Under the pieces are notes generated by a model. The model saw nothing but the letters and a program-made list of their open reading frames with translations. It was not told the origin of the DNA and did no database searches. The position numbers and the translations under genes are program-made. DNA of 60,742 bases from an uncultured Planctomycetales bacterium (GTDB taxonomy: Bacteria > Planctomycetota > Phycisphaerae > SM23-33 > FEN-1343): assembly GCA_964535025.1 (NCBI GenBank), contig CAZHRW010000176.1:1-60742 (forward strand), in the 5' to 3' direction. Shown one piece after another: positions 2 through 6,241 of the stretch; position 1 is the first letter of the stretch; every line of letters starts with the position of its first letter.

Positions 2-556
2 CTCTTTACGCCCATCCAGCGACGGCACGGCGTGCCCATCGGCAACCTGACCAGCCAATGGTTCGCCAACTGGTACCTGACCGGCCTGGACCACTTCGTG
101 ACCAGCGGCCTGGGGCTGGGCGGCTACGTGCGCTACTGCGACGATTTCGTGATCTTCGACGATGACAGGGAGCGCCTGCGGGCGACGGCGGCGGCCGTGG
201 GCGAGTATCTTGCGGGCGTGCGCCTGCGCCTTCACGAAGGCAAGTTGCACACGCGCCCGACGCGGCAGGGATTGACCTTCGTCGGCTATCGGATGTGGAG
301 CACGCATCGGCTGGTGAGGAAGTCGAACGTGCGGCAATTCCGCCGGCGCGTGCGGTGGATGCGGGAGGCGTACGGGGCCGGGCGGATCGACTTCGACGAG
401 ATTAAGGCGCGCCTGGACAGTTGGATGGGCCATGCCCGCCAGGCCGATAGCGAGAGGTTGCTCAGGCGTCTGAGCAGCGAGTGGTCTTTTGTGAGGGACA
501 GCGCCGTTCAGCTACCGCGTGATCCGCGGCGGCAGTTGGAACAACAACGCACGTAA
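2..556 (+). CDS. DGR-type reverse transcriptase, C-terminal part (5' truncated by window edge)
   Basis: GVPIGNLTSQWFAN (the SQ variant typical of DGR RTs), YVRYCDDFVIF catalytic motif, GLTFVGY; directly followed by an AAC-rich template repeat. Confidence 0.93.
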   Translation, partial: LFTPIQRRHGVPIGNLTSQWFANWYLTGLDHFVTSGLGLGGYVRYCDDFVIFDDDRERLRATAAAVGEYLAGVRLRLHEGKLHTRPTRQGLTFVGYRMWSTHRLVRKSNVRQFRRRVRWMREAYGAGRIDFDEIKARLDSWMGHARQADSERLLRRLSSEWSFVRDSAVQLPRDPRRQLEQQRT

Positions 557-632
557 CTGCCGTTCGGCGAACCGCAACAGGAACAACCCCGACAACACGA
601 ACAACAACAACGGGTTTCGGGTCGTGGTTGCT
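495..632 (+). repeat. DGR template repeat (TR) for a CLec/FGE-sulfatase-type target
   Basis: Reads RVIRGGSWNNNARNCRSANRNRNNPDNTNNNNGFRVV with 13 AAC codons; RGGSW...GFR are the conserved VR flanks; boundaries approximate. Confidence 0.9.
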
Positions 633-830
633 CCGGGCGGCCTGCACTTGCGCCAAGGCCACGGCGACGCGTTCGTCCGGAATTCCGGCGTCCACGGATG
701 CCGGAAGCGTGACCGAAACGCAAGTCCTGGCGCTGTTCCCGGACCGTCCCCGACGGGACCGCCGAATCTTCGCCGCACGGCCGGCCGAGGCTGGTACCCA
801 TCGGGGAACGTGTCGGCCGGCCTTCTTTTC
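633..830 (+). ncRNA. Putative DGR spacer RNA downstream of the TR, ending in a terminator-like stem
   Basis: Hairpin TTCCGGCGTC-CACG-GATGCCGGAA (683-706); stem GGCCGGCCGA/TCGGCCGGCC (779-788/813-822) followed by TTCTTTTC. Confidence 0.55.
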
Positions 831-1139
831 TCATGCATCGAGGGCACCTCAGGACAGCCGTGCAAGGTGTTTCTGTCCCCCTACCCCAGCATCAACTCCG
901 CCTTATTCCGTCCCTTTGGTGCACTGTATGGCGCACTGAAAAGTATTCCCGGCCGGATAGAACGACGGACTTGAGGCTTGAGACCTGAGACCTGAGGTAC
1001 GGCGAACGGCCACGCCAAACGGCAACGGCACGACGCCGGGTCGGCGTGGGGGTGGTCGAGGGGTGCGGCGATCTCGCGGCACGGGCGAACGTGTCGCGTT
1101 GTGTCGCGATCTGTCGCGGCGTGACGGGTCACGTCGCAT

Positions 1140-1203
1140 TGCCGGAGGAGGGACTCGAACCCTCACTCTGTTGCCAGGACGGGATTTTGAATCCCGCGCA
1201 TCT
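1140..1203 (-). pseudogene. tRNA-Leu(CAA) 3' fragment (att-like)
   Basis: CGGGA-TTCAAAA-TCCCG anticodon arm, long variable arm, GGTTCGAGTCC T-arm, CTCCGGCA acceptor 3' strand; no matching 5' acceptor strand or D-arm upstream. Confidence 0.8.
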
Positions 1204-1447
1204 GGGCAGGGCTCGCCGCCGCGTCGAGAGGCATCAGCCCCGGCGACACGCCCGCGTCAACGCGGACCCGTACGCATAAAATCCACCAAGTGCATATAGA
1301 GGCACTACTTGCGGCGGACACGGCCCCGAGCGATAAACGCGCGCCGTCAAAGCTGCCCACGAAAGCCGCGGACGCCCGAGCCTGAATCTCGCCGCCAAGG
1401 CCTTGGCGCCGGCGGAGTTCAAATCACATCGCTTTCGTTCCCACGCC

Positions 1448-3405: not shown

Positions 3406-4926
3406 CTACTCGTCTTCGACCCGCTGCGCCGCCGCGGGCGCGGCGATGTCGCGGCGGCGGTCGGCGAGGCGCGCCTGGAAGCTCAGCAGGCTCACGTAGT
3501 AGAACCCCACGCCGAAAATCGCCAGGAACGGGGCGCCCAAAAGCGTTTGGGCGTGAATCGCCGCAAACACGGTGCAGACGGTCAGGTAGATCGCGCAGGC
3601 CAACTCGATCCACGGCAGCAGGCCCAGCTTGCGGCGCTTGGTGCGGACCGGCCGGACGGTCGAATCGCCGAACTTGGGGGTGCGGACGAATTCGCTCTGG
3701 CGGCCCAGCAGCGCTTCGAGGACCGCTTTGGCGTTGGAGATGCACATGCCGGCGCCGAGGGCCATCAGGAACGGCAGGTACTTGAGCGTCCGCCGCCACG
3801 ACCCGAACAACGCCTGCTGGCTGGCCAGGTAGAACGTGCTGGCCGACAGCGTCGCCAGCCAGAACACCCCCAGGTCGAACATCAGCCGCCAGGGCGTGCC
3901 CCCGCCGGCGGGCACCGACTGCAGGAACATCGCCGGGAAGGTCATCAGCACCAGCAGGACCATGTACAGGTGGATGCTGAAGCTGGTCAGGTGGAAGGTC
4001 GCCTCGATCTTCGCCTTGCGGGGCGCGTGCGACAGCCAGATGCGGTGCAGCAGTTTCAGGGCGGTCTGCGTGCCGCCCTTGGTCCAGCGGTGCTGCTGGG
4101 CCTTGAAGGCGTTGATATCGGGCGGCAGCTCGGCCGGGGCCGTCAGGTCGGGCAGGAAGACGAACCGCCAGCCGCGCAGTTGGGCGCGGTAGCTGAGGTC
4201 CATGTCCTCGGTGAGCGTATCGTGCTGCCAGCCGCCGGCGTCGGTGATGGCCTCGCGGCGCCAGGTGCCGGCGGTGCCGTTGAAGCTCATGAACCGCCCG
4301 CTGCGGTTGCGGGCGACGTGTTCGATGACGAAGTGGCCGTCCAGCAGCACCGCCTGGCTGCGGGTCAGCAGGCTGGCGTTGCGGTTGAGGTGCTCCCACC
4401 GCGTCTGCACCACGCAGACCCGCGGATCGGTGAAGTAGTGGATGCTCCGTTTGAGGATATCCGGCGACGGCACGAAATCGGCGTCGAAGATGGTGATGAA
4501 CGTGCCCGTGGCGGTCTTCATCCCGTGGGCCAGGGCGCCGGCCTTGTAGCCGGTGCGGTCGTCGCGGTGGATGTACTCGATGTTGAACCCCGCGGCCCGG
4601 GCCCGCTCGACGGCCTGACGGGCGATCCGGCAGGTGTCGTCGGTGCTGTCGTCGAGGACCTGGATCTGCAGCTTGTCGCGGGGATACTCGATGCGGCAGG
4701 CCTGCTCGATGACGCGCCGCGCGACGACCTGCTCATTGTACATGGGCAGTTGGACCGTCACGGGCGGCAGCTCGTCGAACAGGGCCGTCGGGGCCGTCCG
4801 GCGGTCGCGATAGCGGTAGTACAGCAGCACGAGCGCCCAGCGGTGGAACCCGTAAATCGAGACCATCACCAGGACGAAGGTGTAGACGGTCATGAACAAC
4901 GTGTTGAACAGCGCTTCGATGCTCAT
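3406..4926 (-). CDS. Membrane glycosyltransferase family 2 (cellulose-synthase/CslA-like)
   Basis: VTVQLPMYNE, DDSTD, GYKAGAL, FDADF, TED, QQHRW motifs plus TM helices; start placed at MSIEAL. Confidence 0.9.
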   Translation of the reverse strand: MSIEALFNTLFMTVYTFVLVMVSIYGFHRWALVLLYYRYRDRRTAPTALFDELPPVTVQLPMYNEQVVARRVIEQACRIEYPRDKLQIQVLDDSTDDTCRIARQAVERARAAGFNIEYIHRDDRTGYKAGALAHGMKTATGTFITIFDADFVPSPDILKRSIHYFTDPRVCVVQTRWEHLNRNASLLTRSQAVLLDGHFVIEHVARNRSGRFMSFNGTAGTWRREAITDAGGWQHDTLTEDMDLSYRAQLRGWRFVFLPDLTAPAELPPDINAFKAQQHRWTKGGTQTALKLLHRIWLSHAPRKAKIEATFHLTSFSIHLYMVLLVLMTFPAMFLQSVPAGGGTPWRLMFDLGVFWLATLSASTFYLASQQALFGSWRRTLKYLPFLMALGAGMCISNAKAVLEALLGRQSEFVRTPKFGDSTVRPVRTKRRKLGLLPWIELACAIYLTVCTVFAAIHAQTLLGAPFLAIFGVGFYYVSLLSFQARLADRRRDIAAPAAAQRVEDE

Positions 4927-5623: not shown

Positions 5624-6241
5624 CTAGTCTTCTTTTTTGCCCTCGGGGGCGTCGTCCGTCTCGCCCTGAGCTTCGGGCGCCTCGGCGGTCGCCTCGGCCT
5701 CGGGCGCTTCGGCAGGGGCCTCGGCCGCCTCGTCCTCGGCGGCGCCGACGGCGGCGACCGCCTCATGCCGCGCCGCGGCCCGGCGCTTGCGGCGGGAGCT
5801 GCGCGACCCGCCCTGGCCGCCTCCGGCGCCGGTCTCTTCGACCAGTTGGAGGATCACCTGGCGGCCGGCGTCGCCGAGGCGTCGTTCGGCCAGGCGGATG
5901 ATGCGGGTGTACCCGCCGGGACGATCGGCGTAGCGCGGGGCGATGTCGTCGAACAGCACGTCCAGGACGCCCTTGCTCTGGGGGTTGCCCTCCTTGTCCA
6001 TCAACACGCCGCGCTCGCCGCGGCGGTTGCCCAGCTCGGCGCTGACGAGCCGCCGCGCGTGGACGGTGCCTTTTCGCGCGTGGGTGATCAGCCGTTCCAC
6101 GAAGGGCTTGAGATCCTTGGCCTTCGCCTCGGTGGTTCGGATCGCCCCGTGCTGGAACAGCGCGATGGCCAGGTTCCGCCGCATCGCCCTGCGATGGGCC
6201 GACGTACGATTCAGTGTTCTTCCGGATACGCGGTGCCGCAT
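5624..6241 (-). CDS. rplQ: 50S ribosomal protein L17 with acidic C-terminal extension
   Basis: MRHR...TTEAKAK...RPGGYTRI; follows rpoA. Confidence 0.97.
   Translation of the reverse strand: MRHRVSGRTLNRTSAHRRAMRRNLAIALFQHGAIRTTEAKAKDLKPFVERLITHARKGTVHARRLVSAELGNRRGERGVLMDKEGNPQSKGVLDVLFDDIAPRYADRPGGYTRIIRLAERRLGDAGRQVILQLVEETGAGGGQGGSRSSRRKRRAAARHEAVAAVGAAEDEAAEAPAEAPEAEATAEAPEAQGETDDAPEGKKED

Follow-up and report, generated by a model that had tools for sequence, protein, structure and literature searches.

A probable chromosomal diversity-generating retroelement, cut by a contig start, and the covarying RNA around its template repeat in an uncultured Planctomycetales bacterium

The prototype of the diversity-generating retroelements (DGRs) is that of the Bordetella phage BPP-1, in which the genes and elements are ordered mtd-avd-TR-Sp-brt. 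The available part of a preprint on this system (bioRxiv 10.1101/2023.10.23.563531) describes a 140-nt Spacer (Sp) directly 3' of the template repeat (TR) that provides the priming adenosine. There, a TR:Sp duplex sets the start of the complementary DNA (cDNA), a second duplex between upstream and downstream RNA ends cDNA synthesis, and a stem-loop binds the accessory protein Avd; for 207 of 278 DGRs, comparable elements were predicted. A different order, in which avd is followed by the reverse transcriptase (RT) gene and then by the TR, corresponds to architecture B2 in the accessible sections of Wu et al. 2018 (PMC5758913). In Trichodesmium erythraeum, a TR located behind the RT gene gives rise to an abundant non-coding RNA of 265 nt, comprising the TR and a 3' tail, which accumulates separately and has its own start site, as stated in the portion at hand of PMC4143802. 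Here we analyse a stretch of 60,742 nt from an uncultured Planctomycetales bacterium (assembly GCA_964535025.1), which corresponds to C176:1-60742 and is called the window below. Contig C176 (CAZHRW010000176.1) is one of the 299 contigs of a 4.28-Mb assembly with a completeness rating of 95.7%. We conclude, with a probability of roughly 85%, that window positions 2-851 are the 3' part of a chromosomal DGR with the avd-RT-TR layout, whose RT gene is cut mid-way by the contig start. Window base 1 is the first base of the contig, and the RT gene is therefore truncated by the assembly.

The forward-strand frame at 2-556 encodes 184 aa of a DGR-type RT. It has no stop before the first window base, is open to the first base of the contig, and ends with the stop codon TAA at 554-556. 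A search among longer proteins returned 368 relatives of this RT. The best of them, P0001 (370 aa, encoded on a 4123-nt contig), is 86% identical to the fragment across all 184 aa; since the fragment aligns to P0001 residues 187-370, the window holds only the C-terminal half of the enzyme. An earlier reading of the same DNA, made from the letters alone (the sequence-only reading), had named the motifs GNLTSQ and YCDD, and both are present. GNLTSQ (GGC AAC CTG ACC AGC CAA) is found at 41-58 as part of IGNLTSQW and the catalytic motif YCDD at 134-145, both on the forward strand and both invariant in an alignment of 24 RTs. The window keeps all 47 invariant columns of this alignment, including IGNLTSQW and YCDDF. 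Motif 4 of the IGxxxSQ type is diagnostic of DGR-lineage RTs. PF00078 scores 23.5 bits on the half-protein.

P0001 shares 36% identity with BPP-1 brt in an alignment covering 94% of its length (E 2e-44), and 29% with the two group II intron RTs of the assembly itself (E about 1e-18). An RT phylogeny had been proposed as a check. In a tree of 21 rows, among which there is no retron RT, the window fragment falls into a group of 19 rows together with BPP-1 brt, cellular DGR RTs and RTs from viral contigs, and a branch with 100/100 support divides this group from the two group II intron RTs. Judged on its C-terminal half, the window RT belongs with the DGR-lineage RTs, a placement supported by these comparisons. 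It is 57-72% identical to RTs that adjoin adenine-mismatched pairs of TR and variable repeat (VR), and no RT closer than 72% identity was found in the metagenome collection. As a separate observation, group II intron RTs are represented in the assembly by two full-length genes and a truncated fragment, at C166:7832-9289, C84:13802-14623 (-) and C103:4199-5350.

The layout of related loci was determined in 43 of the 80 returned genome-contig loci, those with the highest RT identity, by scanning for repeats of the DNA around the RT end. A canonical same-strand TR/VR pair was found in 19 of them, with 12-23 mismatches at TR adenines and 0-6 elsewhere. Seven loci follow a different layout, with the repeat on the opposite strand, one has a degenerate pair (L051), two have unrelated repeats, and 14, mostly short or cut contigs, have no repeat. 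The distance from the start of the nearest upstream VR to the TR is 1601-1676 nt in 17 of 18 loci and 2216 nt in the remaining one. In the seven relatives whose interval between VR and RT was examined, the order target(VR)-avd-RT-TR is complete. The gene between VR and RT encodes Avd (NF033474, 91.9 bits with a cut-off of 80; also PF22296), and the genes that bear the VR encode PF03781 proteins (FGE-sulfatase, C-type-lectin fold). These positions agree with the expectation that target and avd lie upstream or elsewhere in the genome. The records carry labels such as Planctomycetota, Phycisphaerae and similar. Four loci (L022, L047, L049, L053) were seen to have two VRs per TR, of which one precedes avd and the second follows the TR at 0.3-3.5 kb. 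In L051, positions 3691-3813 and 2074-2196 form a TR/VR pair with 17 adenine and 18 non-adenine mismatches, which resembles a decaying DGR.

In the window, the TR lies at about 511-648 on the forward strand, in phase with 513, and contains 34 adenines and 13 AAC codons. It can be aligned column for column with the TRs of 15 relatives, and its limits were taken from the limits of TR/VR homology in these loci. There, homology begins about 12-14 nt ahead of the CGCGGCGGC of RGG and ends with CCTG, which is followed by C in the TR (the CCTGCAC motif) and by G in the VR. The window TR has about 18 extra nt ahead of the end motif, as does L045. Since the relatives' limits were applied to the window, the overlap with the RT gene amounts to about 46 nt. 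The sequence-only reading had placed the TR at 495-632 with an overlap of about 60 nt; the overlap itself holds, but these limits do not, and 495-506 is instead the arm of an RNA duplex described below. The frame starting at 519 reads IRGGSWNNNARNCRSANRNRNNPDNTNNNNGFRVVV. All 13 of its Asn codons are AAC, as had been counted between RGGSW and GFR, and the size of the repertoire derived from them had also been calculated correctly (15^13 = 1.95e15). When every adenine-bearing codon of 513-647 is considered, about 10^19 protein variants are possible, and a stop codon cannot arise. The last 34 nt ahead of the TR end motif (611-644) are free of adenines. The translated TR matches positions 210-254 of PF03781, the last 45 positions of the family, with 26.6 bits (cut-off 23.3). 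By its translation, the TR lies in an FGE-sulfatase/C-type-lectin reading frame, and together with the targets of the relatives this agrees with the target fold originally suggested.

Directly 3' of the TR, a conserved structured RNA extends over 638-851 (+), as recognized by a covariance model and by covariation. It is the counterpart of the Spacer of BPP-1. The end of the TR (ACTTGCG, 646-652) pairs with CGCAAGT at 719-725, which is followed by a near-invariant CCTGG; this helix 1 is a candidate template:primer duplex. In the alignment with relatives, 98.1% of its cells are paired, and double changes occur in five of its seven pairs. A 12-bp long-range duplex encloses the TR: its 5' arm (GGGACAGCGCCG, 495-506) is located inside the RT frame and its 3' arm (TGGCGCTGTTCC) at 728-739. 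For this clamp, 95.3% of the cells are paired, 30 cells show double changes compared with 2-4 in slid controls, and none of 500 shuffles reached the observed value. Helix 3 is a long hairpin at 675-713 (675-692 with 697-713, 4-nt loop) and a candidate Avd-binding stem-loop, with 95.2% of cells paired and double changes in 10 of 14 pairs. Helix 4 is a hairpin at 740-764 (740-748 with 757-764, 87.5% of cells paired). The last structure, at 779-832, consists of a terminal hairpin (779-789 with 812-822) with an inner helix (797-799 with 803-805), numbered 5 and 6, and a pyrimidine/U-rich tract at 823-832. All these elements are on the forward strand. The 3' end of the DGR RNA may lie at this tract, whose possible role as a terminator is inferred, a simple terminator scan having given no match.

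When the 3' RNA was aligned with 14 relatives, 91.4% of the cells were paired compared with 32-47% after sliding the partners. Double changes were found in 102 cells compared with 18-32 in the slid controls, and 0 of 500 shuffles reached the observed values. The single-sequence fold of 640-850, however, showed no significant excess stability (z = -1.49; 12 of 200 shuffles fold as well). The spacer structure therefore rests on covariation among relatives and not on thermodynamics. The spacer had been called hairpin-rich from its letters: the structure is borne out by covariation, whereas the stability of the lone fold is not. A sub-threshold tRNA was the only match at E <= 1 when positions 1-1400 were searched with Rfam 15.

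The covariance model, R1, was built from the 14 relatives with the window left out. It matches 638-851 end to end with 102.3 bits (E 7e-29), which is its sole match in the window and the only significant one in the assembly, where the two runner-up places reach only 13.8 and 12.3 bits (E 0.33 and 0.94). Within the RT clade, R1 matches were obtained in 49 of 80 genome loci (14 of these being its own training sequences) and in 50 of 80 metagenome loci. R1 locates the TR end precisely and does so without the need of any VR. In six loci of the clade, the R1 RNA was observed upstream of the RT, which starts at 6001 in each: L037 (5453-5666), L054 (5395-5602), L056 (5440-5647), L058 (5444-5647), L060 (5465-5662) and L062 (5458-5664). 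Four of these (L056, L058, L060 and L062) have a downstream repeat partner on the opposite strand. These loci represent a second cassette layout within one RT clade.

The TR had been described as downstream of the RT gene and overlapping it, with the frame stopping at 556, and this is indeed the case. The frame covers about the first 46 nt of the TR before its stop codon (554-556), and the last 20 or so RT codons (495-556) also supply the clamp arm and the beginning of the TR. The same DNA does serve as RT C-terminus and template, but the significance given to this was overstated, as nearly all relatives share the overlap and coding periodicity is lacking behind the TR. Among 19 relatives, the RT frame enters the TR in 18, running past its end in 15 and stopping inside it in three; in the remaining one it stops 2 nt before the TR. 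The frame reaches the GTCCTGG motif of the tail in 17 of 25 loci. The spacing between the TR end and this motif falls into the three mod 3 classes in 28, 15 and 12 of 55 distinct loci, and the next interval behind the TR in 22, 18 and 11 of 51 loci. Anchors within the TR fall into one mod 3 class in 45 of 51 loci, as expected of DNA that mirrors a coding VR. The anchors were set by regular expressions, and one of them, in the window itself, was misplaced. Since the spacing behind the TR shows no coding periodicity, the tail is conserved as RNA and not as protein, and the overlap looks incidental, a by-product of the TR and the 5' clamp arm abutting the end of the RT gene. An extension of the RT through the TR and the RNA tail as a real protein was rejected on the same grounds. 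Many RT proteins of this clade in the databases (P0002, P0017, P0026, P0048 and others) are 414-480 aa long, the extra length being read-through of the TR (tails like RRQLEQQ...PQQ...) and of the RNA tail. These entries are probably annotation artefacts and not longer enzymes.

Several results weigh against an intact element. The VR had been reported missing from the window, and it is absent from the whole 4.28-Mb assembly as well, so that the assembly shows no TR-VR pair, the defining feature, for this element. A BLAST search of the assembly with 480-660 returned only the query itself and short chance matches, and an adenine-tolerant scan of both strands of the assembly found one other place only, on contig C59. 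Since 611-644 contains no adenine, any VR written from the window TR must carry this 34-mer, but the assembly contains a single copy of it, the second-best place showing 8 mismatches. The genome search for VR copies that had been suggested as a check came out negative in this way. For a DGR-type avd, the best NF033474 match in the assembly scores 30.2 bits (cut-off 80), and a tblastn search of the assembly with the Avd proteins of three relatives gave nothing at E <= 1e-3. The N-terminal half of the RT is absent from the assembly in spite of its completeness rating. The R1 score of the window (102 bits) is lower than that of most close relatives (roughly 90-190 bits), and simple scans of 1-1400, for sigma-70 in the case of promoters, detected neither a promoter-like nor a terminator-like site. 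Because the relatives place the VR 1.6-1.7 kb upstream of the TR, with avd in between, both are expected beyond the contig start. If their spacing applies here, the cognate VR should be found some 1.6 kb upstream of the TR, which would place it about 1.1 kb beyond the left end of the window. The theoretical repertoire cannot be tied to any gene of this assembly.

The place on C59 raises the question of whether its gene is a real, remote target that is still being rewritten. C59:7061-8233 (locus L191, 262-1434) is one of only three FGE-sulfatase genes in the assembly and contains the sole VR-like place in the genome. Its protein is by far the best match to the relatives' targets, with 44% identity over 253 aa (E 4e-50), compared with 23-30% for the other two. 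An unusual 3' extension after GFRVVV is common to this gene and the window TR. Its last ~134 nt (about C59:8097-8224) differ from the window TR at 22 of 33 adenines and at 21 of 101 other bases. This adenine bias is non-specific, because diversification affects the same codons in all VRs of the clade. In a control of 161 pairs, the mismatch rate between TRs and VRs of different genomes was 58% for adenines and 25% (range 14-39%) for other bases, so the 21% seen on C59 corresponds to a cross-genome pair, whereas cognate pairs show only 0-6 non-adenine mismatches. The copy also has the 8 mismatches in the adenine-free 34-mer, and any homing event would remove such differences. Signals at the target site, found at the 3' end of the VR, are the initiation of mutagenic homing (IMH) site and a hairpin. 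A palindrome or hairpin centred on GCGNAGC follows the VR in 13 of 14 relatives, but none follows the stop codon of the C59 gene. Neither avd nor an RT is located beside this gene, and the next open frame matches no Pfam family. The C59 gene was rejected as the cognate VR on account of its non-adenine mismatches and the missing hairpin, and that it is still an active target is very improbable. Judged by these mismatches, it was not recently rewritten from the window TR and is not its current target; it may be a retired or paralogous one.

According to another explanation, the DGR is decaying or orphaned, and the RT-TR-RNA module was left behind when the target, avd or the RT N-terminus was lost in the real genome. 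The absence of VR, avd and RT N-half from a 95.7%-complete assembly speaks for this, as does the one gene of target type (C59:7061-8233), which differs from the TR at 21 of 101 non-adenine sites through drift and lacks the hairpin that follows the VR in 13 of 14 relatives. A degenerate pair is also known among the relatives (L051, 18 non-adenine mismatches), and the element is patchy, as the RT is present in none of six other genomes of the same family, including one of the same genus. All visible parts, however, are intact: the RT frame is open, all invariant residues and 13 AAC codons are there, and so are all RNA helices. Moreover, the missing parts are exactly those expected beyond the contig end. 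We consider decay quite unlikely. That the locus is no DGR, but a group II intron or retron RT followed by a stretch that is rich in Asn by chance, is hardly credible. Some source annotations name homologues 'retron-type', and the best NCBIfam match of the fragment is TIGR04416, a model of group II RT/maturase. The latter stays below its cut-off of 300, with 49 bits for the fragment and 137 bits for P0001, and the retron RT model NF038233 (St85) likewise, with 21.9 bits for a cut-off of 235; msr/msd were not searched for. The NCBIfam models of group II, retron and Drt RTs all score far under their cut-offs. In addition, the tree, itself without a retron RT, splits the fragment from the genome's own group II RTs at 100/100, homologues have adenine-specific TR/VR pairs together with Avd, and the conserved TR-flanking RNA is present. 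We conclude that the DGR fragment is real, of known architecture and target type, and incomplete owing to assembly.

Metagenome data were consulted for the C59 gene at the level of assembled contigs, over C59:6800-9235, in runs X1 and X2, which are labelled aquatic or freshwater-sediment metagenome. One contig per run covers the VR-like part with zero differences; assembled contigs drop rare variants, and this result gives no evidence either way. A contig break at L191 1197-1224 falls in a conserved FGE motif common to other organisms, outside the VR-like part. The two runs have contigs of identical lengths (7954 and 1447 nt) at near-equal depths, and possibly represent one data set filed twice. 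They contain 0.91 of the sampled words and are a possible source of the assembly.

Judged from open reading frame translations alone, the genes downstream of the DGR encode a NUDIX-like protein, an endonuclease III-like protein, a glycosyltransferase and ribosomal protein L17. When four downstream window proteins were searched in about 170 related loci, no shared neighbours were found. Within the same order, a close RT homologue (66-72% identity) occurs in 3 of 54 genomes and any match at E <= 1e-20 in 7 of 54. A phage origin was considered and rejected, as identity to the best RT on viral contigs reaches only 44%. A tRNA-Leu(CAA)-like sequence lies some 300 nt past the DGR RNA, at window 1139-1221 (-); it scores 21.4 bits with the Rfam tRNA model (gathering score 29) and is detected by ARAGORN only at a lowered threshold. 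A degenerate tRNA is one possibility, an old integration site another. The element adds one more chromosomal DGR to a clade that is common in Planctomycetota-labelled metagenome-assembled genomes (MAGs), with a target that is unreadable from this assembly.

From the relatives and the BPP-1 model, the following course of events can be proposed. An RNA spanning at least 495-832 would be transcribed, whether within the RT message, as its 3' end, or from a promoter of its own; by analogy with Trichodesmium, which belongs to the wider RT clade, a separate transcript of TR plus tail is plausible. The RT and Avd would bind the folded 3' RNA, and cDNA synthesis would be primed from within the RNA at the TR-end duplex, although the priming nucleotide cannot be named from sequence. 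The TR would then be copied with random bases opposite adenines, and the cDNA would replace the VR at the 3' end of an FGE-sulfatase-type target gene. The helices of the window would map naturally onto the RNA roles described for BPP-1.

A more speculative proposal, which we regard as unlikely, is that the RNA surrounding the TR in this clade, with its 5' clamp arm in the RT frame, its TR-end duplex and its ~200-nt tail, constitutes a formally undescribed family (no Rfam 15 match, about 100 of 160 loci), and that a transcript being translated into RT cannot serve as template at the same time, the two uses possibly being coupled. As the RT frame ends only within or past the RNA fold, ribosomes that complete the RT would have to melt the clamp. 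If the proposal holds, the new RT could capture its own message once the ribosome leaves. Our literature search found no paper describing the TR-flanking RNA of this clade by covariation; supplements with the motifs RT-1 to RT-19 (PMC5737381) and Table S3 (bioRxiv 10.1101/2023.10.23.563531), both sources being available in part, may already include it.

The closest described systems are DGRs from MAGs labelled Planctomycetota or Phycisphaerae (for example L022, L024, L027, L029 and L040), which have architecture B2 as defined in the accessible part of PMC5758913 and RTs 57-72% identical to that of the window. In these, the TR begins at the end of the RT frame or shortly before it, as in the window, and they have in common with it an RGGSW...GFR template in an FGE-sulfatase frame, the CCTGCAC end and a structured 3' RNA. 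The window differs in that its upstream half is cut off by the contig end and its RT stops 46 nt into the TR, whereas the TR is read through completely in 15 of 19 relatives. With the T. erythraeum DGR, the window shares the position of the TR downstream of the RT gene, but that DGR has, according to the sections at hand of PMC4143802, at least 12 scattered targets and an RT that a stop codon interrupts. The RT of a Trichodesmium-labelled locus (L068) is 48% identical to P0001. BPP-1 and the window have in common a homologous RT, an adenine-rich TR and a structured non-coding RNA directly 3' of it. Both also have a duplex at the TR 3' end and one between upstream and downstream RNA (for BPP-1, as given in the available part of bioRxiv 10.1101/2023.10.23.563531), those of the window being known from covariation. 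In BPP-1, however, TR and Sp precede the RT, whereas in the window the TR and its RNA are located behind it, and the 5' RNA arm is provided by the 3' end of avd in BPP-1 and by the 3' end of the RT gene here. The target of BPP-1 is Mtd, while the relatives of the window target FGE-sulfatase proteins, and the window DGR is chromosomal, near housekeeping genes, unlike that of the Bordetella phage. The covariation described here, from a distant clade with the opposite gene order, provides independent support for the TR end-spacer and upstream-downstream duplexes of BPP-1.

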